Shown here piece after piece: positions 5,203 through 31,150 of a DNA stretch of 64,000 nucleotides (positions are counted from its first letter, which is position 1; each line of letters opens with the position of its first letter). The notes below the pieces were generated by a model, which had not been told where the DNA came from, did not search any database, and saw only the letters and a list, made by a program, of their open reading frames with translations. The stretch comes from a virus. Location: positions 1 to 64,000 of IMG/VR virus record IMGVR_UViG_3300034105_001128; one strand, given 5' to 3'. The position numbers were made by a program, and so were the translations under genes.

Positions 5203-6609
5203 ATGGATATCGCAATGTTCACTGAATCGTACGAACCAAACATGGGTAACAAGCGACGTCAAGTCCTTGTTGTTCCACATGATGGGGCTGTGCGTATCTA
5301 TTCTCGCTTGACTGATGGCACTAAAGGCCACAACAGCAAGTGGGAAGAGACTAACCTAGAAGATATCTCACAAGAGATATCAGACAAAGAAACATTGACA
5401 CGAACACCTGTTGGAGTGTATGTAACTCCAGCAGATAATCGTGCGATGGATTCAAAAGGTTATTCACCAGTGTTGGGTACCAAAGCATGCGACAAGCATG
5501 GTAGGGCAATGACAACAACAGATACCACACCAGTTGTAGATATCATCTGTGATTTCTACGAACAAGTCAATGTCGGAGACGACAGTCTGGAGAAATACGT
5601 GACGGATAACCGCTCAAGTACAGGCACTACAGTTCCTTTAGTAGTTGCTGTACCAACACAAACAATGGATGATCTAGTACCAGCACAATCGGCACCATCA
5701 TTCAATGTATCGTTAGCAACAGTTCCTCCAATGAAGTTGGCGGAACGTTATGTGCACCGTAAAGTATACGGTGTTGAAGACTTCAAAGCCTTTGACAAAG
5801 CACGATCTAACGGTATCAACGTTCTTATCTATGGCCCTACAGGTCCAGGTAAGACAACAGCTGTAGAAGCGTGGGCAGCAGCCCGCGGTCTACGTATGGC
5901 TACAGTATCAGGTAACGCATCTATGGAGTCTCGCCAGCTATTCGGTGGCTTCATTCCTGATGGCATCGGAGGTTATGGTTGGATCGATGGTCCAGTAACT
6001 GATGTTGTACGTAACGGTGGCGTCTTATTGCTCGATGAGATGAACTTCATCAGCCCTAAGATTTACACTACATTGTATCCGCTAACAGATGGTCGTCGAT
6101 GCATTACATTGCTCGATCACATGGGTGAAACAATCGTGGCACACAAAGACTTAACAATCTTTGCAACCATGAACCCAGACTACATCGGTACAACACCGCT
6201 TAACTTCGCTATGCGCAATCGTTTCGACATTCAATTGTCGTGGGATTACGATGACGCAGTAGAGGCTAAGCTAGTTTCATCTAAGGCTCTCTTGCTAGTA
6301 ACTAAGCAACTTCGTGCTGAAGCTGCTAAGGGTCAGTACGAGACACCAATCTCAACTAACATGCTCATCGAAGTTGAAGCGTTCATTAAGGATGCTGATC
6401 TTGGCTACGAGTTTGCGGTTGAGAACTTCATTGCTCACTTCAGTGCGGAGGAGCAAGCATCTGTTCGTCTAGTCTTCCAGACACACGAACACAACATCAA
6501 GACAGACTTCGGCATCGAAGTTCCAATAACAATGGAACAAGCTGCTACAGTAACTATTGATGAACAACTATCCCAATGGGTAGCAGCACGTCAACTACAA
6601 CCGAACTAA
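5203..6609 (+). CDS. MoxR-type AAA+ ATPase (CbbQ/NorQ/CobS-like)
   Basis: Walker A GPTGPGKT, Walker B LLLDE, sensor ATMNP, Arg finger AMRNRF. Confidence 0.9.
   Translation: MDIAMFTESYEPNMGNKRRQVLVVPHDGAVRIYSRLTDGTKGHNSKWEETNLEDISQEISDKETLTRTPVGVYVTPADNRAMDSKGYSPVLGTKACDKHGRAMTTTDTTPVVDIICDFYEQVNVGDDSLEKYVTDNRSSTGTTVPLVVAVPTQTMDDLVPAQSAPSFNVSLATVPPMKLAERYVHRKVYGVEDFKAFDKARSNGINVLIYGPTGPGKTTAVEAWAAARGLRMATVSGNASMESRQLFGGFIPDGIGGYGWIDGPVTDVVRNGGVLLLDEMNFISPKIYTTLYPLTDGRRCITLLDHMGETIVAHKDLTIFATMNPDYIGTTPLNFAMRNRFDIQLSWDYDDAVEAKLVSSKALLLVTKQLRAEAAKGQYETPISTNMLIEVEAFIKDADLGYEFAVENFIAHFSAEEQASVRLVFQTHEHNIKTDFGIEVPITMEQAATVTIDEQLSQWVAARQLQPN
5653..5664 (+). promoter_or_regulatory. CCAACACAAACA motif copy
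   Basis: exact 12-mer in the linker-coding part of the AAA gene. Confidence 0.55.
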
Positions 6610-6621
6610 GTTAGGAACCAT

Positions 6622-8496
6622 ATGTATAACGATGATTTATCATCCGAACCGTGGTACCAACAAGAACGTGATGAGGAATCTCAATTACGTTCTGTTAGGC
6701 TGAATGCTCTGTGCCGTGTGTACGAGCAAGCAGACCGTGTTCTAAGTGGTGACCCTGTGATTGTGAATGTTGTTACCGGAGGAAGCGCACCAGCGTGGTC
6801 CGATGGAGCATCTATCACATTCAATGCAGACGAGATCAATGACCTTGACTTGGAAGCATTGACACAGATCAACGGCCTGAACTATCACGAGTTGGCTCAC
6901 CATCTCTATACACCACGTCGTGGAACAACATTCATGAAGTGGGTTATGGAGAATCAATACTTAGAGGCTGCAAATATACTAGAGGATCAGCGTATCGAGA
7001 CTCTACTTACAGCACGCTATCCAAGTATCATTCCGTATCTAACAGCCACAGTTGCTAGGTGGCTAGGCAACACACCCGAGCATGCTATAGGTAACTATAT
7101 GCTGGTGCGTGGCCGTAGGTATCTTCCATTGGAAATCAGACAATCATTCAGAGATTTGTTTGCTTTCCCTGATTTACTACCAGCCATCGTAGATATTGTA
7201 GATCAGTATCGTACGCTGGCATTCCCACGTGACTATGAGAAAGCACAGAAACTCATCAAGCGGTTCAATGATGAGGTCTTAGGTAATCTTGACATGCCAC
7301 AACTACCACAAGGTATGAATGGCTGTACGTCACGTGATCCCATTACTAAAGGTCGTCCCGAACCTGGTAGAGCACAGGAGAAAGACGCAGCTAAAGGTTG
7401 CAACATGGGTACAGCTGAACCAATAGGTGGTGGTCGTAAGCCAAACCTTAAGCCCAACACAAACCCAACCGAAGGACAAAGCACGGCTGCGGTAAGTGCA
7501 CCGCAAACATCTAGTGAAGCACTTGACATGCGTGCTAGGAACCAGGAACAAAAACAACCTGGTAACTTATCAGCAGGCTCAGGTCATCACGAAAGTGTTG
7601 GCGGCATACCAGACAACGTCAAGGAAATGCTTGAGGATACCATCCAGACAGTGTTAGAACGTAAAGACGTTCAACAGGATGTTAAGACGAAGCAGAAAGT
7701 AATTGTCGGTGGTGATGGTAAGCATGATGACACAATCAAGTCAGGTAAGTTCGATATGACATCTGTTCCTAATGAATCAGTGTTGTTATATCGTAAATTT
7801 GCCCGTGAACTTGAGCGTCTTCGTGATGAATGCGAACCCGCATGGCATCGTGAGGAAGCTAGTGGTCGCCTAAACATGCAGCGTGTGTTTAGAGGCTGCG
7901 AGATTGATGAGGCCTTTGACCGTTGGGATGAAGGCAATGATGGTGCCGATGTAGAAGCGGTAATCATGATTGATCGTTCTGGCAGTATGGCTAGTGGTCA
8001 GAATGATCGCAGAGCATCTGAAGCATGTTGGACAATCAAGCGTGCACTTGAGCAAATTGGTGCGCCAGTCACAGTCTATGCCTTTGATGATAAGGCTGAG
8101 GTTGCGTACAAGCGTACAGAGCTAGCTCACCGTACACAATACAAGTTCATCTACGGCAATGGTGGTACTAATCCATATACCACCCTACTTGCTGCAGAGC
8201 AACTATTCATATCGTCACGACGCAAAAACAAAATGCTATTCATAGTTACTGACGGTGCGTTTGACGCATCCAAGAACGATGAAGTCATTGAGCGTATTGC
8301 TAAGCGTGGCGTACTCACAGCCATGACACTAATCATGGCTAATGATGATGCTCAGTACTACGAAGATCGTGGTATGACCGAGAAAGAATTCAGACATGGT
8401 GCTGAGATCTTTGGTCGCATCAACAATGCACGAGACCTATTGCCATTTGCCAAGGCAGTAGTAATGGGGGCAATCAAAAAGCGTGGCGGCCGTTAA
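6622..8496 (+). CDS. VWA-domain partner of MoxR (CobT/NorD-like) with N-terminal HExxH domain
   Basis: MIDAS DRSGSM, GGT, VTDG; HELAH and LEDQRIE near N-terminus. Confidence 0.88.
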   Translation: MYNDDLSSEPWYQQERDEESQLRSVRLNALCRVYEQADRVLSGDPVIVNVVTGGSAPAWSDGASITFNADEINDLDLEALTQINGLNYHELAHHLYTPRRGTTFMKWVMENQYLEAANILEDQRIETLLTARYPSIIPYLTATVARWLGNTPEHAIGNYMLVRGRRYLPLEIRQSFRDLFAFPDLLPAIVDIVDQYRTLAFPRDYEKAQKLIKRFNDEVLGNLDMPQLPQGMNGCTSRDPITKGRPEPGRAQEKDAAKGCNMGTAEPIGGGRKPNLKPNTNPTEGQSTAAVSAPQTSSEALDMRARNQEQKQPGNLSAGSGHHESVGGIPDNVKEMLEDTIQTVLERKDVQQDVKTKQKVIVGGDGKHDDTIKSGKFDMTSVPNESVLLYRKFARELERLRDECEPAWHREEASGRLNMQRVFRGCEIDEAFDRWDEGNDGADVEAVIMIDRSGSMASGQNDRRASEACWTIKRALEQIGAPVTVYAFDDKAEVAYKRTELAHRTQYKFIYGNGGTNPYTTLLAAEQLFISSRRKNKMLFIVTDGAFDASKNDEVIERIAKRGVLTAMTLIMANDDAQYYEDRGMTEKEFRHGAEIFGRINNARDLLPFAKAVVMGAIKKRGGR

Positions 8497-11205: not shown

Positions 11206-11235
11206 TGGCCCCGGCTCTTAATTGAGTCGGGGCCA
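11206..11235. terminator. terminator at convergence of early (+) and nrdJ (-) transcription
   Basis: TGGCCCCGGCTC-ttaatt-GAGTCGGGGCCA. Confidence 0.7.
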
Positions 11236-11262: not shown

Positions 11263-11409
11263 CTAGCCTTCTAGATCATCATCTTCTGAGATGTCATTTT
11301 CCAACTCATCTAATTCATCTTCATCGAAGTCAAAGTCTTCGAATCCGTCTTCCATGTCTTCTTCAAAATCTTCATCAAATAGGTCTGGATTGATTTCATT
11401 TTCAGTCAT
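11263..11409 (-). CDS. 48-aa hyper-acidic peptide (not in ORF track)
   Basis: SD AAGGAG; MTENEINPDLFDEDFEEDMEDGFEDFDFDEDELDELENDISEDDDLEG. Confidence 0.65.
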   Translation of the reverse strand: MTENEINPDLFDEDFEEDMEDGFEDFDFDEDELDELENDISEDDDLEG

Positions 11410-13450
11410 TGGTTTCTCCTTTAGTGTTGTCTCTAATTAGTTTTACTTCGCATGCGTCTGTGGTGCAGTAGGCTTCACCAATTGCCTCTGTACCTAATCC
11501 CTCATAGACTCCTGTAAAGTCAATTGGGAATAGTGTCATTGTTCCGCTCTCATACTCTTCTTCGGTGCTTTGAGTGTAAGGCATTTGTGGGTAACTGGTT
11601 GGATCCATGGGCAAGAATGACACAGTTTTTAATTGTCCGTCGTACATATGGAGCGCAGTTCCAATGGCCTTTGCTTCACTCTCAGGGTCAAAACTAATAG
11701 TCACAGACACAGAATTGTCTGACCAATAGCGTTGAGCTGTAGCTGCAAGTGCCATCTTTTCATAGATAGATACTTCTCTCTCTGATCTTAGAGAGTTAGA
11801 CTTCACGGGAAAGAATACCACCGATGTTGTAGCTGGCGATTCAGATGCGGGCTCTACCCGGTAGTTTGCCATCTTAAAGAGTGGCAACATTGGGTCGCTA
11901 TTCCCAAAGCGAATAGTTCTAAGGAAATACTTACCGCCTGGTGTCCAATGTACGCCAGGTGACTCTCCTGCCAGAATAGATACAGTGCCGGAAGGCTTTA
12001 CAGTGGTAGTTTTAATCGACTCGCGGATACCAAGCCATTCTGAGTATGACTTATCGTATGCCTGAACAGTCTTGTATCCCTCGTCCATCCAATTACGCAA
12101 TACCGGCAACCCACGTAGGTCTGCAAAATTTGCCACACCTGACATAGATGTTCCAATGCGACGGTTACGCTGCATGATTGCGTTGGTCTCTTCCCAGTGA
12201 GTTGGGAGAAGGGTTACAGTCTTAGCATAGAGATAGGCAAACTTAAGGGTTCGCTTGTAGTCGTCCAGGCTGTCGTGACGATTGAGATAGGTCTCTACCA
12301 AAGTACAGCATTCCATTGATTCCAATGACTGTTCTGCGCAAGGATTATACCCGGCTGCACGCCAGTCTTTGTTGTTTTCAGGATCTGCTAGTCTTCCGTA
12401 CTTACGAGTTACGTCCATCCAGACTACGCCAGGCTCACCGTTACGGGCTATACCGTCAATGATCTTAGAGAGATCTGTACCCACACTTGCCTCAACTGAG
12501 TTATTTGACATCCAGCCCCAACCCGGAGCGGCCGGATCGTAGCTATTGCGCTCAGGAAATACTTCGACATTCTTTAAGTTGAGAAACTCATCATCTTCAA
12601 TACGACCAATTAGTAGCTCAGCTGAACGTCGTACGTTACCGGATACTACGCATACACCAATAAGATTACCAATATCTGCAATGTCGCGGCGTGTTAGTTT
12701 TTCTCCTGCACGGCCATCAAAGATCTTAGAGACATAGTTGTGTAGTTTGATTAGTGGGTCGGCTCCTGCGGCTGTTCCTCCGAAGGTTTTGATTGGCGTG
12801 CCTTCTGGTCTAATTTCTTCGTAACGAAATACTGGAGCCTTTGTATCTGGTCGTAGGTAAGCATTGATGAGAGCGGATGTGGATTCGACCCATCCTTCTC
12901 GGGTGTCTGGGATGACATATTCGTCGCCTTTCTGTGGTTCATAGATTGTAAAGTCTTTATCTGCGCCCTTGTCGTCAAATCCAACTCCCACTCCCAGCAT
13001 AGAGGCCTCCATTAGGAAGGCAAATGGTTTAGCTGGATCGAGCTTGGTCATTGAGTTTGTAGATACAAAAGAACAATTCTGAAGTGCTGCAGAGTTTCTC
13101 TGAATGTTAATAAGGGGTGTTCCCATCATCCAAAGTCCACGGCCAGGTGGTGTCCACTTCAATTGGAATAGGCGATCAAATGCCTCTTTGGCTGAAGCAG
13201 CGGCTTTTGAGTCTGACCAAGGAAGACGTTGAGATTTAGCGTGGTCCTTTTGTAGGGAATACATGCCGTTGATTACACGCTCACATACATCTACCCAAGT
13301 CTCCTTGGTTCCATCCTCTTTAAGACGAGAGTAGGTTCTAAGAAAGATAATCTCACCTACTGCATTGCCGGCAGCATCTTTATACCCCCATGGAACTGGC
13401 TTTCCCCGATATGAATTTACGTATTCTTCTGTCAACTTGAATGAAAACAA
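11402..13450 (-). CDS. nrdJ: class II (adenosylcobalamin-dependent) ribonucleoside-triphosphate reductase
   Basis: PPGRGLW, ALQNC, NPCAEQ, VKPSGTVS, C-terminal CTTDAC. Confidence 0.93.
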   Translation of the reverse strand: MFSFKLTEEYVNSYRGKPVPWGYKDAAGNAVGEIIFLRTYSRLKEDGTKETWVDVCERVINGMYSLQKDHAKSQRLPWSDSKAAASAKEAFDRLFQLKWTPPGRGLWMMGTPLINIQRNSAALQNCSFVSTNSMTKLDPAKPFAFLMEASMLGVGVGFDDKGADKDFTIYEPQKGDEYVIPDTREGWVESTSALINAYLRPDTKAPVFRYEEIRPEGTPIKTFGGTAAGADPLIKLHNYVSKIFDGRAGEKLTRRDIADIGNLIGVCVVSGNVRRSAELLIGRIEDDEFLNLKNVEVFPERNSYDPAAPGWGWMSNNSVEASVGTDLSKIIDGIARNGEPGVVWMDVTRKYGRLADPENNKDWRAAGYNPCAEQSLESMECCTLVETYLNRHDSLDDYKRTLKFAYLYAKTVTLLPTHWEETNAIMQRNRRIGTSMSGVANFADLRGLPVLRNWMDEGYKTVQAYDKSYSEWLGIRESIKTTTVKPSGTVSILAGESPGVHWTPGGKYFLRTIRFGNSDPMLPLFKMANYRVEPASESPATTSVVFFPVKSNSLRSEREVSIYEKMALAATAQRYWSDNSVSVTISFDPESEAKAIGTALHMYDGQLKTVSFLPMDPTSYPQMPYTQSTEEEYESGTMTLFPIDFTGVYEGLGTEAIGEAYCTTDACEVKLIRDNTKGETND

Positions 13451-13492: not shown

Positions 13493-14962
13493 CTAGCCTT
13501 CTAAATTGTCACTAATAATTCTACTGGATTCTGCCTCAGTAAGTCCAATTTCCGGGACTCTTGCACGCTCTCCAAAGAGTTGGGATAAGACTCCCCCAGA
13601 GGTTTGACGCTCCACGGTCATCCGGACGAACTCTTTATTCTCTTCTAATTTTTTAACTTCCCCTATGATCTTAAAGAGTCTGTCAATCTCTTGACCCGTG
13701 TTTGGATCGGGGTACCCGCCGTTTAATTCTTCTGCAAATCTAGCAAAACCTACTCTAGCGGCCTGCATTTCGATAATTGCGTTCAATAATCCCTTTAGTT
13801 GCTCTTTGGTATTAATCTCAACCGGTAGATTAAACGCACAAGAATTGTTAGGTTTGAACGCAGGGCAGTTGCTCGCAACGAAGCAAGTATTGCATTGACG
13901 AAAGGAAGTAGTGGTGCTTGTTAATACCGGAGCATCCCTAATTACGTCTCTTCCAGTATCATCTTTCTCAATAATTGTCTTACTTGTAACGCCAAAAACA
14001 GGCAAAGTTCTGATCTCTTCAGGGTCTCTAGGCTTGAAATCTTTCCGCACCTCTACCCCTCTGTTATCAGGTGCCAAGCCCCTAGTTTCCGCAGAACCTG
14101 CGCTATCTAATTCATCACTGTTATCAGATAACTTCTCTTGTGAGTATTTTTTATTCAACGAATTCTCCAGCTGCAGGTAGGACCAAATGGCGAGGCGAGT
14201 TACCTCATTACTATCATCATTAATAATCTTTTCAAAGTCTAGTCCGGCCCTCTCGATGATCGCCTTGTAGCGAGGACGAGCTTGGTCTTTCTGCTTCTTC
14301 TGATAGCGGACCAGTCTAGTGCCATCCCAGACAATTGTCTCACCTCTCATCATTGGACTTAACCAAGATAATGAACTCGCTGTAGCCAATGGGACCTGGC
14401 GTAGGTTGTCCGGCTTAGCGCACGCTATGCCATGGAACTGAAGGTCAGGGAATTGGCTTAATAGGGCCCTGGAGCGGGCTGAGAGACTCGTATCGTCTTC
14501 CAGTGACTCTCCGAGTAGCCCAACGTTGTTGTACTGCTCAGCAAGACCAAATAGGGCAGTGTGCCCAAGATCTTGGTGCCAAACAACTGAAAACTTATCT
14601 AAACCAAAGTCCTCACCAAAAGTGCGACGTTGATGATTAATCCAGTTTTGTCCCATGGCCCTAGCGTCTACCTCTGTGGCCAGGGTAATCCTATCCTCAT
14701 TGAGAACAAGCCAATCCTGGTAGGAAGCCGTATACTCTTCGATCTCACGCTCTGTCATTTCTAGATCGTTGATCTGATGCCCGCCACCATCTATGTAGAT
14801 CTTGATGTCATCCGGGAAACGTTCAGCTAATAAATAGTCTTTGGTCTTTGGGAGACCACGCTTGACTAGTCTGAAGTAGTTAATGCTGATGTGTTTAGCT
14901 CCGGCAGCTGCCAGAAGGTTTCTATGTGAGGGTACCTCTCCGCCCATGAAGACTATGTTCAT
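13493..14962 (-). CDS. TGT/DpdA-like TIM-barrel protein fused to a Cys-cluster C-terminal domain
   Basis: IYIDGGG (DSG-like), VVWH, FHGIA, ASSLSW (DS-x-x-W-like) in TGT order; CX2CX5CX8C. Confidence 0.55.
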   Translation of the reverse strand: MNIVFMGGEVPSHRNLLAAAGAKHISINYFRLVKRGLPKTKDYLLAERFPDDIKIYIDGGGHQINDLEMTEREIEEYTASYQDWLVLNEDRITLATEVDARAMGQNWINHQRRTFGEDFGLDKFSVVWHQDLGHTALFGLAEQYNNVGLLGESLEDDTSLSARSRALLSQFPDLQFHGIACAKPDNLRQVPLATASSLSWLSPMMRGETIVWDGTRLVRYQKKQKDQARPRYKAIIERAGLDFEKIINDDSNEVTRLAIWSYLQLENSLNKKYSQEKLSDNSDELDSAGSAETRGLAPDNRGVEVRKDFKPRDPEEIRTLPVFGVTSKTIIEKDDTGRDVIRDAPVLTSTTTSFRQCNTCFVASNCPAFKPNNSCAFNLPVEINTKEQLKGLLNAIIEMQAARVGFARFAEELNGGYPDPNTGQEIDRLFKIIGEVKKLEENKEFVRMTVERQTSGGVLSQLFGERARVPEIGLTEAESSRIISDNLEG

Positions 14963-15423
14963 TCGTAGCGGTTAACCCTACTTCCAAGGTGGGCGTCTAG
15001 AAGAGCTAGCTTTTGTTTTTCTACCTCATTTTTTAGATCGTCCCACGGTTTTACTTGGCGGGATGTTCGAACAAACCTAGGTGAAGCAAACATGATTACA
15101 GGCACTCCCAAAGATAATGCCTCTGCACATCGGTCTGCATCTGGATCTACAAATAGCTCGACGCGTCCTTTAGATCTAGCTATAGCTAGCTGGCGGGACC
15201 GTAAGTCTTGGCCCTCAAAGAAGTACCTATCATCATAGATATCACCGTAACCAATAATTAGGTTGGCACGTAGCCAGTGCTCTGTCTGATCATGTGTAAG
15301 ATCTGAAGCAATAACAACCCTGTAGTGCTCTGAAAGAATTCTGTACAGCTTTACACCTTCTGGAATTGGATCTCCAGTTTCCGTTTTTAATACGCCTTCT
15401 AGTGCAACAAGTGCTGTAGCCAA
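14959..15423 (-). CDS. degenerate HAD-fold protein
   Basis: ALVALEGVL at motif I, LFVDPD at motif IV. Confidence 0.55.
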   Translation of the reverse strand: MATALVALEGVLKTETGDPIPEGVKLYRILSEHYRVVIASDLTHDQTEHWLRANLIIGYGDIYDDRYFFEGQDLRSRQLAIARSKGRVELFVDPDADRCAEALSLGVPVIMFASPRFVRTSRQVKPWDDLKNEVEKQKLALLDAHLGSRVNRYE

Positions 15424-15426
15424 TTT

Positions 15427-15528
15427 TTAATCCTCCGGGGTTCCTTGTCTTGCGCAAATACATTTACAATCATCTATCTCACACACAGTGTAATCCATCG
15501 TGTGTTTACACTTTATGCAACTAACCAC
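15427..15528 (-). CDS. 33-aa six-Cys peptide (not in ORF track)
   Basis: GTG start; MVSCIKCKHTMDYTVCEIDDCKCICARQGTPED fills the gap and carries the next SD. Confidence 0.5.
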   Translation of the reverse strand: MVSCIKCKHTMDYTVCEIDDCKCICARQGTPED

Positions 15529-16438
15529 GCAAAGTTCTCCTGATCAATGTAGATGCATCAGGTAATTCTACACCGTATACGTTCTTTTGTAAACCGGCAT
15601 CTTGGGCTGCTTTATGGTCTTTAATAGTCTTTAATGCTTGTATTACACCGGAACGTTTCCCAGCTTGCCATCGATAGTTGTTAAAATCAGAATATCCTGA
15701 ACCAACGGCACTGAATGCAATTTTTCTACCGCCGTGAATGTCATCAAAATGAGCAATTGCCTGTTCTGCAGCTAATTGCATTTTTGTTTCTGCGTTACGG
15801 CGATGTGCAGGATTGGTTGCGTTACGTACTTCTGATAACGCTGAAGAATAACGATTTATTAAATCTTTTGCATTAGCCTCGTCACGCATAGTTCTTTGTT
15901 CCCAAGCACGACTATAAGGGGGTTGTGGGTTTACATCAGGCTTGACTGTCCATGAGTCTGTTGTAAGATCATAGGCAGCGTATGGATTAATGTCCCTAAT
16001 ATTTGACTGTGGATTTACGTAGTATGTTAGTTCATACCCTTCCCAATTACGGGTGTTAGGCATAAGCTCAGCGCTGAATCCTTCGTTAAATGTCTGTGCA
16101 ATTTCTTTATCGGAATACCCAGCAAATTCTGGATTGTCCTGTCTAAACTTAATGTAGTCGATACCAATTAAACAATCAAGGTCACCTGGCTGTCTTGCGG
16201 CTGCCCATTGGTAAGATACGCCGGAACCAGCTAACCAAACATGTGTCCAGGTATTTGGACTAGTATAGTTCTTACCTAAGTAGTCAAAGAGCATAGAGAG
16301 TACACCAGTGCGTACCCAAGGTAGAAGCTGCTGTTCTTGAAATAACTTTGGATCTAATTCTGAAGACGGCTCACTAAAATAGGAAGTAGACCCCGGAGTG
16401 ATCTCCGGGGCCTCATAGTCAAAGTTTTCAAAATTCAT
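15521..16438 (-). CDS. Pol-beta-superfamily nucleotidyltransferase
   Basis: LAGSGVSY...GDLDCLI, third acidic residue in YELTYYV. Confidence 0.75.
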   Translation of the reverse strand: MNFENFDYEAPEITPGSTSYFSEPSSELDPKLFQEQQLLPWVRTGVLSMLFDYLGKNYTSPNTWTHVWLAGSGVSYQWAAARQPGDLDCLIGIDYIKFRQDNPEFAGYSDKEIAQTFNEGFSAELMPNTRNWEGYELTYYVNPQSNIRDINPYAAYDLTTDSWTVKPDVNPQPPYSRAWEQRTMRDEANAKDLINRYSSALSEVRNATNPAHRRNAETKMQLAAEQAIAHFDDIHGGRKIAFSAVGSGYSDFNNYRWQAGKRSGVIQALKTIKDHKAAQDAGLQKNVYGVELPDASTLIRRTLRG

Positions 16439-16492: not shown

Positions 16493-16786
16493 TTACTTAG
16501 ATGCTGTTGAATCTCCCTGATTTGCTGCGTCTGCCTCTGGCTTCATGCCAGAAAGCTTAATTGCCACGTATTCTGCGGCGGACTGTGCTTGTAGATCAAT
16601 TAGGATTTCTGAGACATATCGGCGCACTTCTAGAAGTGTAGCCTCGCGCTCTACCGGAATTGCTAGAACGGATGTATTACGCTCTACAAATACATTTCCG
16701 CCCTTGTCAACAACTACTGCAAAGCCAAACGCAAGTTCTGGGATTGCAGGTGTTGTTTCGTCTTGTGGTGTTGTTTCTTTTGACAT
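16493..16786 (-). CDS. hypothetical protein
   Basis: SD GAGG; operon tiling. Confidence 0.65.
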   Translation of the reverse strand: MSKETTPQDETTPAIPELAFGFAVVVDKGGNVFVERNTSVLAIPVEREATLLEVRRYVSEILIDLQAQSAAEYVAIKLSGMKPEADAANQGDSTASK

Positions 16787-16793
16787 GTTTCCT

Positions 16794-17375
16794 CTATTCG
16801 TATAGGCCCATTTTTTTACGATTTTGTTCTACCACATAGGTTTTTGCTGGACAAAAGTCACACAAGTATACCTTTGTGCCACCTGATTTTGCCGCGCTCT
16901 CTAAACCTAATTCTTTTCTTGCGTCTGCCGTGCTCTTAGGTATAAGTCGTTTGCTCTCGCTCTTCCAGTCATAGCAACCCTCTACAGGTCGCAAATGCAG
17001 GTTAAAACACTTCATCGCATCATCAAAAAATGTTGCCTTGGTAGTGTAGTAATCTGGGTCAATATCAGCAAGACCACCACCTACTTTATTTCGTAGATTC
17101 TCAACAACTTGCTTACGTACTTCAGGACGAGAGTATAACTTAACGCCAATTTTAGATAGAAAACCATTGTGCGGAATTCCAGCGGATTCATGTCGGTCTA
17201 CTAATACCTGTAGTGTGACGTCATCATCTGGGTGCCCCTCAAAGTCTGGGAGTTCTTCGATGGTTTTACAGTTGTAACAGTACAGCAGACGAATCTTAGG
17301 ACCTTCATCCTTGATCTCTGTGTAAGTGCCCTCATCGGCAGGCTGTGCGCCTCCGCCTAAAATAGGGATAGTCAT
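16794..17375 (-). CDS. hypothetical protein with CxxC motifs
   Basis: SD GGAGG; CYNC and CDFC. Confidence 0.7.
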   Translation of the reverse strand: MTIPILGGGAQPADEGTYTEIKDEGPKIRLLYCYNCKTIEELPDFEGHPDDDVTLQVLVDRHESAGIPHNGFLSKIGVKLYSRPEVRKQVVENLRNKVGGGLADIDPDYYTTKATFFDDAMKCFNLHLRPVEGCYDWKSESKRLIPKSTADARKELGLESAAKSGGTKVYLCDFCPAKTYVVEQNRKKMGLYE

Positions 17376-29983: not shown

Positions 29984-30831
29984 CGCTTACAGCCTACTGC
30001 AGGATCTGTGCTGCAGACCGGTGGTCGTTTATTATTTACTGCCCAAGCTACGTCTAAAGCCCTGTCAAAGATATCTTTAGTAAACTCTGGGTTGTATTGT
30101 ACTACGAATTCTTTGTACTCTTGGTTAGCCTTAAGCTCATAAATAAACACAATCTCTTTTGGAGCAGACTCAAACAGCCCCTCTTCAACCATTAGGTGAC
30201 AAAGATGTAGGTATACCTGCCCCTGTAGCTGATGGGAACGAAAAGGTGTTTTAATATTCTTCCATGCTTTTTCTACGTTGTCGTCTGCTTGTGCCATAAT
30301 AGCCGGGGCATCCATGCGGATACCTCCAGAACCAATTGACTTAATTTCAATTAAGCAGTCTTCTCCTAAACCCTTAATCCAACCATCAGCGTGACCACGG
30401 ATCATATGCTTATCGCTACGCAGAGAAACCTCTGCGTATTCTTTATTTACAAGTCCTTGAAGATCTTTAGATGTAGCCCAGGTATAATCCTTAGTTATAG
30501 GGTTGTACCACTTACCATATAGAACACCCATATCGTTAAACCACTTCTGCCATTTAGCATGAATTGTGTGGCCTTCAGCAAAGATAGATGCAAGGCGAGC
30601 CGGGGTCTTGTCACGAGTCTCTACGTAGTTACCATTAACAGCATGGTATTGCGCAAGTGCGCACCAATCATCTTTAATGATATCAGACGGATGAATATAA
30701 CTCATGTCACGATCATCAAATGGGCGAGTTAACACGTGGCGCTCTACAGCACCCATAAGTCGGGTTGTTCTTTTCTTTGTTTCTAAGAATGCTTTTAAAT
30801 CCTTACTAGCAATGGTTTTAGGTGTTGCCAT
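29956..30831 (-). CDS. Cas4/RecB-like PD-(D/E)xK exonuclease
   Basis: HPS...C, GHTIH, GHADG, IEIKS, QGQVY, C-terminal C..CxxC. Confidence 0.8.
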   Translation of the reverse strand: MATPKTIASKDLKAFLETKKRTTRLMGAVERHVLTRPFDDRDMSYIHPSDIIKDDWCALAQYHAVNGNYVETRDKTPARLASIFAEGHTIHAKWQKWFNDMGVLYGKWYNPITKDYTWATSKDLQGLVNKEYAEVSLRSDKHMIRGHADGWIKGLGEDCLIEIKSIGSGGIRMDAPAIMAQADDNVEKAWKNIKTPFRSHQLQGQVYLHLCHLMVEEGLFESAPKEIVFIYELKANQEYKEFVVQYNPEFTKDIFDRALDVAWAVNNKRPPVCSTDPAVGCKRCAPFQEAK

Positions 30832-31150
30832 ACTTTCTGCCCTCTTTCTCTAACCACTCTTCTAAGGTTGTGCCTTTTTTCTTATACTTGCGTTGGGCTG
30901 CATTTCTTTCTCTATGCGACATTCCGCCAAAGATTCCGTGAAGCTCATTATTAATTATAGCCTCTTTAAGGCACTCTTGTCTAACCGGGCATGCCGGCCT
31001 ACCGTCTTTACCTAAACAGATTGCTTTAGCTTTGTCAGCTATGGGCTTATACAAAGCCTTATCTCGTGGAGGAAAAAATATCTCTGTGTCTTCTCCCTGA
31101 CACTTGGCTTCATATCTCCAGGTCCATGCTGGATCATCGCTATATCGCAT
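30818..31150 (-). CDS. whiB: WhiB-family transcription factor
   Basis: AKC..IFFP..AKAIC..CPVRQEC..GIFGGMSHRER. Confidence 0.92.
   Translation of the reverse strand: MRYSDDPAWTWRYEAKCQGEDTEIFFPPRDKALYKPIADKAKAICLGKDGRPACPVRQECLKEAIINNELHGIFGGMSHRERNAAQRKYKKKGTTLEEWLEKEGRKYGNT

Follow-up and report, generated by a model that had tools for sequence, protein, structure and literature searches.

The organization of the locus

We have analysed a compact group of genes in a 64,000-nucleotide stretch of viral DNA (the window), comprising the first 64 kb of the 76,241-bp IMG/VR record IMGVR_UViG_3300034105_001128, which has a CheckV completeness of 78%. Four genes follow one another on the minus strand. 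The first (16438..15521) encodes a 305-aa protein resembling nucleotidyltransferases (NTase) of the Pol-beta type. This is followed by a short open reading frame (ORF) with a GTG start (15528..15427), encoding a peptide of 33 aa that includes six cysteine residues. Next is a gene with a TTG start (15423..14959) for a 154-aa protein that has features of the HAD family, and lastly a gene (14962..13493) for a 489-aa protein with the fold of tRNA-guanine transglycosylase (TGT) and DpdA. We refer to the last two as the HAD-like and DpdA-like proteins. The genes are very closely packed. The last 8 nt of the NTase gene are shared with the beginning of the Cys-peptide ORF, there is a gap of 3 nt between the stop of the Cys peptide and the start of the HAD-like gene, and the stop of the latter overlaps the DpdA-like start by 4 nt (ATGA). 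A first-pass annotation, made from the sequence alone, had described four coupled ORFs at this locus, and these are all present on the minus strand together with the motifs quoted from them.

Streptomyces phage BRock (Borockvirus, 112.5 kb) has counterparts of about 30 ORFs of the window, in identical order. This shared order begins with DnaB helicase, a helicase and DNA polymerase, continues through the block studied here, and extends to the genes for baseplate, sheath and tube. Because of this collinearity we assign the source phage, from its sequence, as a distant low-GC relative of the BRock-like actinophages.

No match was found in Pfam, NCBIfam or PADLOC for the NTase, the Cys peptide, the HAD-like or the DpdA-like protein. 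Searches of PDB sequences with single sequences and with the profiles of alignments A1, A2, A3 and A5 returned only chance-level matches. A1 is an alignment of 60 diverse homologues of the DpdA-like protein, and was also the input for its AlphaFold2 (AF2) model. A2 contains 24 NTase sequences and A3 contains 15 HAD-like sequences. A4 is an alignment of the DpdA proteins of phages 9g, CAjan, Iggy, phiFN37, BCD7 and BS162P1.

The DpdA-like protein has a TGT barrel and a separate C-terminal domain

Residues 1-278 of the DpdA-like protein (14129..14962, minus strand) form a TIM barrel of the TGT/DpdA type, as indicated by the PHROG match, the AF2 model and hhalign. The family phrog_887 ('queuine tRNA-ribosyltransferase') covers the full length of the 489-aa protein with E = 4.7e-56, and the AF2 model has a pLDDT of 96-98 over residues 1-270. 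The first-pass annotation had seen TGT-type motifs in this protein, and the fold that they suggested is borne out by two structural comparisons. The top 50 Foldseek matches to the model are all bacterial TGT (E = 2e-5, prob 1.00). A scan of 48,161 chains using VIA-align, which is independent of Foldseek, placed five chains of the TGT superfamily first. Archaeosine TGT (1iq8) ranks highest, with Z = 18.0 over 258 aligned residues and a root-mean-square deviation of 3.4, followed by bacterial TGT (3unt, Z = 16.7), Cap10 of type IV CBASS (9ntn_B, Z = 16.5, 245 residues), Salmonella DpdA (7ui4, Z = 16.2, 267 residues) and QTRT2 (6fv5, Z = 15.7, 270 residues). Generic TIM barrels gave Z ≤ 13.6.

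Within this superfamily the protein is a true homologue of phage DpdA. Alignment of A1 with A4 using hhalign gave 99.8% (E = 7.5e-28) over 269 columns, and with gp21 of Bacillus phage BCD7 gave 99.9% (E = 1.2e-31). In tblastn searches the barrel of BCD7 gp21 in turn matches the DpdA of phages CAjan, 9g, Iggy and Vid5. With one E. coli TGT only the DSG region was aligned (E = 0.055). No paralogue of the DpdA-like gene was found in the record; gp37 of BRock was considered as a second TGT-like gene and was rejected as having no similarity.

The motifs of the barrel are IDGGG (containing D58), VWH (W128-H129), FHG (H177-G178) and SSLSW (S196-S197 and W200). The pocket is lined by E97/D99, W128-H129 and H177-G178, with D58 at the position of the general acid.

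The C-terminal domain (13493..14032, minus strand) follows a disordered linker (residues 279-310). It comprises a cluster of four cysteines, C357-x2-C360-x5-C366-x8-C375 (13838-13894), then two long helices in which the motif GGY.DPN is invariant, with an acidic tail at the end. G415 and the four Cys are invariant in the 60 sequences of A1. In BCD7 the domain is likewise fused to the barrel, and in Bacteroides phage BS162P1 it is encoded by a separate gene (00088, hhalign 99.3%). The domain is ancestral in this branch of DpdA. Outside the family little was found. A PDB sequence search for the domain gave no match, a tblastn search matched only the same family, and a search among shorter proteins for stand-alone copies returned nothing but truncated family members. 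The family phrog_6902, 'terminase small subunit', matches 8 of 11 diverse C-terminal domains weakly (best E = 0.0076).

BCD7 gp21 and the DpdA of BS162P1 are similar to the window protein in having both the barrel (98.4% by hhalign for the BS162P1 barrel 00087) and the Cys4/helical domain, and in the order of their motifs, i.e. DSG, E-x-D, WH, HG, xSxxW and G[DE]T. The best explanation of this is that the 489-aa protein descends from a two-domain branch of phage DpdA that is typified by BCD7 gp21. The barrels of the DpdA1 proteins of 9g and CAjan and of the DpdA of Salmonella Montevideo (7UI4) are also homologous, but DpdA1 does not have a separate Cys4/helical domain of this kind.

The catalytic nucleophile has been lost

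In 9g numbering the invariant residues of A4 are D72-S73-G74, H141, H196 and D215-S216-x-x-W219. Profile alignment of A1 with A4 places D58, H129, H177 and W200 of the window protein opposite D72, H141, H196 and W219 of 9g. By contrast the nucleophile, D215 in 9g and D256 in the Salmonella enzyme, is aligned with a serine, S196 (14375-14377, minus strand), so that the replacement of the nucleophile suspected in the first-pass annotation stands. In the AF2 model S196 lies at the end of strand 8 of the barrel, i.e. where the nucleophile is expected.

This substitution is a property of the whole group. The nucleophile column of A1 contains Ser in 27 of the 60 sequences, Gly in 11, Ala in 9, Thr in 6 and His in 2. 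Among the 150 best representatives at 50% identity the Asp is present in just one (P0257), whose IMG/VR relatives are only 33-37% identical, while the other 149 have Ser, Gly, Ala, Thr or another residue that is not Asp. The general acid is D58 in the window protein and is Asp in 43 of the 60 sequences of A1. In one subclade (L040 and L044) LDSG is replaced by VHPG, and both of the catalytic Asp positions of DpdA have gone. Other parts of the protein have been retained. W128, W200, C357, C360, C366 and C375 are invariant in the 60 sequences, and conservation reaches 90% or more at E9, E97, D99, H177 and G207.

Three active-site Asp residues have been reported as invariant in TGT and DpdA (PMC10164549). 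In Salmonella DpdA Asp95 is the general acid/base and Asp256 the nucleophile, and substitution of either by Ala abolishes guanine exchange (PMC10164549). The counterpart of the nucleophile in TGT is D280. Since the Asp that forms the covalent intermediate has been lost, the DpdA-like protein should be unable to perform base exchange by the double-displacement mechanism of TGT and DpdA, and it probably does a different job.

The genes for 7-deazaguanine synthesis are absent

It has been suggested that DpdA can serve as a signature protein of 7-deazaguanine in viral DNA (PMC10516641). The DpdA1 proteins are linked to genes for preQ0/G+ synthesis, and bacterial DpdA requires the ATPase DpdB. No match to QueC, PTPS/QueD, GTP cyclohydrolase I (FolE), radical-SAM or Pfam-TGT families was found across the 76,241-bp record, in agreement with the earlier view that the locus differs from a standard dpd cluster; nor is it a cluster of the 7-deazaguanine kind. 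Nor is the base supply found in complete relatives. QueC was not found in the complete genomes of BRock and GiJojo, nor in five ~100-kb relatives that are 100% complete by CheckV, three of them with direct terminal repeats. The DpdA-like proteins of those five are 37-79% identical to that of the window. Thus a preQ0 pathway elsewhere in the genome, acting with an intact active site, does not account for the protein; no such pathway was found in the record or the complete relatives. With regard to the bacterial Dpd restriction-modification system, in which DpdA is accompanied by DpdB and further dpd genes, none of the proteins of the cluster was matched by any PADLOC or NCBIfam model, in a comparison that included no search aimed at DpdB.

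The situation is reversed in the two phages closest in domain organization. BCD7 gp21 retains the Asp in the sequence GDSTTW, and its gene directly adjoins those for FolE, QueC, QueE and QueD. In BS162P1 the DpdA is split; the barrel (00087) has kept the Asp (VDSVTW) and its gene lies between that for QueC (00086) and a radical-SAM QueE-like gene. In both, DpdA is thus located within a cluster of the FolE/QueC/QueD/QueE kind, whereas the window protein has SSLSW and no que genes. Conversely, HAD-like and NTase neighbours are present in the window phage and not in BCD7 or BS162P1. We note that every gene of the BS162P1 DpdA cluster (L059, 3124-7138) is annotated 'hypothetical'. Loss of the Asp is therefore correlated, in the sequences compared, with loss of the base supply. 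In the supplement of Hutinet 2019 the DpdA of BRock (APC46298) is entered as a singleton and that of BCD7 (YP_007005872) as accompanied by FolE, QueD, QueE and QueC. Those authors noted that a DpdA of the singleton type may have undergone functional divergence.

We have considered whether some catalytic activity could persist. On this explanation the barrel would cleave or exchange a base using a relocated carboxylate (E9, E97/D99 or E208) or an activated water molecule, either using a base made by the host (preQ0, preQ1 or another purine) or acting as a glycosylase, with the NTase and HAD-like proteins preparing the substrate or processing the product. The strong conservation of the pocket residues and of the acids on the catalytic face (E9, E97, D99 and position 208) is consistent with this, as is a level of constraint sufficient for the family to host inteins (see below), and BRock is among the phages with a singleton DpdA that were suggested as perhaps relying on the host (Hutinet 2019). 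Yet E9, E97/D99 and E208 are found equally in BCD7 gp21, which has kept its Asp, so that they are not compensatory gains. Moreover there is no single replacement residue at the nucleophile position, where Ser, Gly, Ala and Thr all occur, the general acid is itself variable (becoming His in L040 and L044), and activity does not survive the D256A substitution in the Salmonella protein. On balance we regard residual catalysis as rather unlikely.

The HAD-like protein has also lost its nucleophile

In the HAD-like protein motif I reads A7-L-E9-G-V-L, where DxDG would be expected. The absence of the nucleophile noted in the first-pass annotation is general, for in all 15 homologues of A3 (that include BRock gp38 and GiJojo gp179) the position is occupied by Ala, Ser, Tyr or Val, while the +2 position is always Asp or Glu. 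The layout of the protein is compatible with a HAD core, in that a strand bearing x-x-[DE]-G-V-L is succeeded by one that ends in S/T-D and by a third containing D-x-D-x-D. There was no Pfam or PDB sequence match. A weak match to phrog_420 (E = 1.3e-4) was found, and a language-model comparison with the ESM Atlas matched HAD phosphatases of the NIF type (0.91, with 162 shared features). The protein is 23% identical to BRock gp38 (E = 2e-13), and the homologue in GiJojo is annotated 'hydrolase'. These are leads toward a putative HAD fold that would lack its motif-I nucleophile. The middle region of BCD7 gp21 (residues 283-600) was examined as a candidate for a fused HAD domain, and was rejected as showing no similarity.

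The HAD-like gene is paired with the DpdA-like gene. The 4-nt overlap between them is retained in nearly all of the IMG/VR loci, over a range of protein identity of 30-77%, and even in L067 and L068, which are divergent, the two lie side by side. Judged by this overlap, translation of the two genes is predicted to be coupled.

The nucleotidyltransferase is a frequent but not an obligatory neighbour

The NTase has the carboxylates required for catalysis, as had been claimed on first reading. G71-S72, D86-L-D88 and E136 are invariant in 24 of 24 sequences in A2, and in the AF2 model (pLDDT 86.9) they lie on strands 65-71, 85-93 and 135-140, respectively. An N-terminal peptide, TSYFS..LDP.LF (residues 18-33), is likewise invariant. 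The model comprises a putative minimal NTase domain (residues ~30-160) followed by a C-terminal helical bundle (175-304). When residues 30-160 were taken from the full-length model and compared with the structures of minimal NTases, almost the whole of which they cover, the scores were modest, i.e. Z = 6.6 with 1ylq (88 of 93 residues), 6.2 with HI0073 (95 of 102 residues) and 5.5 with SO_3166. Matching clusters in the ESM Atlas are named nucleotidyltransferase, and PF01909 is assigned to 12% of the members of one of them. The CD-NTases CdnE, CdnD and CdnG matched the model in Foldseek only with E = 0.05-0.15 and prob < 0.3, and these matches, like those to aminoglycoside NTases, are at the level of chance. 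In BFVD the model is matched by uncharacterised phage proteins with E = 1e-8 to 1e-10. The combination of NTase and helical bundle recurs there in proteins of 346-884 aa from freshwater phages at 15-18% identity; one of the BFVD matches, A0A6J5M1C6 (812 aa), bears the name 'amidoligase enzyme' and has the NTase fold fused to an amidoligase.

The NTase and BRock gp39 share 39% identity. In cultured phages, homologues of the NTase are confined to six Streptomyces phage records, which are the same six that carry the Asp-less DpdA-like gene. However, profile searches did not find it in the relative G001 (L067; 100,059 bp, CheckV 100%, high GC), which has kept the HAD-like/DpdA-like pair and the 193-aa protein described below, nor in BCD7 or BS162P1. 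The 'nucleotidyltransferase' gp15 of BCD7 was considered as a homologue and rejected, having no similarity. Because G001 keeps the pair without the NTase, the latter is a frequent neighbour of the pair and not an obligatory one. The earlier proposal, in which the degenerate folds would serve the NTase as sensor or binding subunits, is not supported by this distribution.

The occurrence of an NTase alongside a TGT fold brings to mind type IV CBASS, in which a remodelled TGT, Cap10, accommodates in its active site the N-terminal tail of CdnD, an NTase with the Pol-beta fold (bioRxiv 10.1101/2025.04.06.647259). By analogy with the binding of the modified N-terminus of CdnD by Cap10, the DpdA-like protein might bind the N-terminal tail TSYFS..LDP.LF of the NTase and so gate its activity, with the NTase making a nucleotide signal or nucleotidylating some target; a variant that serves as a decoy or in counter-defence can also be envisaged. 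Several observations could be accommodated in this way, including the position of Cap10 among the five best structural matches, the invariant peptide that precedes the core of the NTase here, and the co-occurrence of the two genes in the six cultured phages. The resemblance does not extend further. Cap10 has kept its Asp (D248) and has no Zn site, while the window protein is the opposite on both counts. Cap10 needs the QueC-like Cap9 and is part of a bacterial defence operon that includes an effector; here there is neither a QueC/Cap9 homologue nor an effector. The NTase is closer to minimal NTases than to CD-NTases, the complete relative G001 has the pair without any NTase, and a core gene found throughout a lineage is unlike an accessory gene of anti-defence. 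We therefore consider a Cap10-like arrangement to be very unlikely.

Gene order and constraint

Two small genes lie upstream of the NTase on the minus strand, encoding a Cys-rich protein of 193 aa (16794-17375) and, between this and the NTase, a protein of 97 aa (16493-16786). Neither has a family match. Of the genes in the block, that for the 193-aa protein shows the highest conservation (61-95% identity in most IMG/VR loci, and 31% with BRock gp42), and by inspection of the translations the 97-aa protein resembles BRock gp41. Downstream, the DpdA-like gene is separated by 42 nt from nrdJ (13450..11402, minus strand), encoding a class II, B12-dependent ribonucleotide reductase of 682 aa (PF17975, E = 1e-27; PF21995, E = 2.5e-13; phrog_367, E = 1.9e-136).

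Comparison with relatives, called for in the first-pass annotation, showed that the genes are syntenic in ~50 IMG/VR loci, although as a sign of shared function this is confounded by the collinearity with BRock. The order in these loci is that of the 193-aa protein, the 97-aa protein, NTase, a variable spacer, HAD-like, DpdA-like and nrdJ, with the first two genes upstream of the NTase in ~50 of the loci. BRock has the same order without nrdJ, and with an endolysin gene and gp37 inserted. Since whole genomes are collinear, the order reflects one lineage and not independent replication, and as an argument for a common function it is weak.

The spacer between the NTase and HAD-like genes contains different small ORFs in most relatives. 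The Cys peptide has homologues in 6 of ~50 related loci (L004, L005, L007, L043, L046 and L052). Because all six Cys are kept in these six while the remaining positions vary, the 33-aa ORF probably encodes a real micro-protein. From its distribution it is an accessory of the closest subclade, outside the core of the module, so that its earlier inclusion as a core component is now less likely.

It could be argued that the NTase, HAD-like and DpdA-like genes are simply separate early or middle genes of the phage backbone, adjacent by descent and having no connected function. The collinearity of ~30 ORFs with BRock, extending from replication to tail genes, would be expected in that case, as would the interruption of the block by endolysin and gp37 in BRock, the variability of the spacer and the failure to find the NTase in G001. 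It is less easily reconciled with the overlap of the HAD-like and DpdA-like genes, conserved despite protein identities as low as 30%, with the persistence of their adjacency in L067 and L068, or with the loss of both nucleophiles in the same lineage. On present evidence unconnected neighbours seem unlikely. We note that the conserved start-stop overlap and the parallel loss of the nucleophiles are the two observations that provide evidence beyond common descent.

The DpdA-like family is large; at E ≤ 0.001 the protein matches at least 843 clusters built at 50% identity. Inteins usually occupy conserved sites of important phage genes. LAGLIDADG inteins interrupt members of this family at three sites. 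In P0343 the intein separates G-[DE] from T in the conserved GDT-VW motif, in P0285 and P0346 it precedes the second cysteine of the cluster, and in P0281 the fourth. Two other members, P0243 and P0251, have N-terminal HNH endonuclease domains. Because the family hosts inteins at conserved sites, the gene is likely to have a core function rather than being a dispensable anti-defence gene. Every relative carries the module, a core trait of the lineage. Together with the inteins this renders a role in counter-defence, which had been suggested earlier, less likely. A role in tRNA handling is also less likely, as nothing points to tRNA and the record contains no tRNA genes.

A possible function for the DpdA-like and HAD-like proteins

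We tentatively favour a reading in which the protein is a nucleic acid recogniser that is derived from DpdA and no longer exchanges bases, working with a pseudo-HAD partner and frequently associated with the NTase; we judge this quite possible. In the BRock-like lineage the nucleophilic Asp has been lost and the genes for 7-deazaguanine synthesis are absent, while the residues of the pocket, the two Trp and the Cys4 cluster were retained. We infer that the protein most likely binds rather than catalyses, and that it would recognise nucleic acid, probably DNA, perhaps by flipping a base into the pocket. It would act as a stoichiometric pair with the translationally coupled pseudo-HAD, and the NTase may act on a substrate or complex shared with that pair. 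There is a precedent for such a role in QTRT2, a TGT-fold protein without catalytic activity that serves as a binding partner. The difference is that QTRT2 pairs with the catalytic paralogue QTRT1, whereas the phage record contains no second TGT- or DpdA-like gene.

Some observations weigh against this reading. Acidic residues are strongly retained, with position 9 acidic in 60 of 60 sequences, position 97 acidic in 58 of 60, D at position 99 in 54 of 60 and D or E at position 208 in 57 of 60, so that a relocated carboxylate or hydrolysis would be feasible. The HAD fold is based on a pattern of motifs, a weak PHROG match and a language-model lead. In BRock gp37 separates the HAD-like and DpdA-like genes. 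Lastly, gene order here follows a collinearity with BRock that extends over the genome, and adjacency consequently says little about function.

A more specific proposal can be built upon the reading of the protein as a non-exchanging recogniser. The barrel and pseudo-HAD might together constitute a novel base-flipping reader of DNA that is essential to a large actinophage lineage of global abundance, and that recruits a substrate for the Pol-beta NTase or presents one to it. The outcome would be an undescribed nucleotidylation of DNA or protein, or a step of recognition during replication or packaging. In this detailed form it is improbable. If it were true, an enzyme of DNA modification would have become a pseudoenzyme with a new core function.

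The results bear on the annotation of phage genomes. In the literature that could be searched we came across no account of the missing nucleophile or of the accompanying HAD-like and NTase proteins, and annotation pipelines give these DpdA-like genes the name 'queuine tRNA-ribosyltransferase'. Use of DpdA as a signature of 7-deazaguanine can be misleading, given that 149 of the 150 closest representatives are without the nucleophile and the genomes that were checked are without the base supply. The presence of two adjacent pseudoenzymes as core genes, one of them hosting inteins, points to an unrecognised step in phage biology. Phages of this lineage are common in lake water and have culturable Streptomyces relatives, so that the function is directly testable.

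Occurrence of the phage, and other features of the window

Near-identical DNA is present in lake-water metagenomes from 2020, 2023 and 2024. In one metatranscriptome library, contigs from a relative that is ~90-95% alike span the region, though carry-over of DNA could account for these, and no transcript ends are visible. A scan for promoters and terminators gave counts no higher than in shuffled sequence. A 12-bp GC-rich hairpin (11206-11235) lies between the convergent early genes on the plus strand and the end of the minus-strand unit, and is probably a bidirectional terminator. The minus-strand unit ends with nrdJ and an ORF for an acidic protein of 48 aa (11263-11409). There are no tRNA genes in the 76-kb record, unlike BRock. 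A WhiB-like gene is located among the BRock-matching genes (30818-31150, minus strand). On the plus strand, positions 5203-8496 encode an AAA+ ATPase (phrog_249, of the CobS/MoxR-like family) and then a protein of 624 aa with weak family matches only; these are apparently a pair of the MoxR/VWA type.

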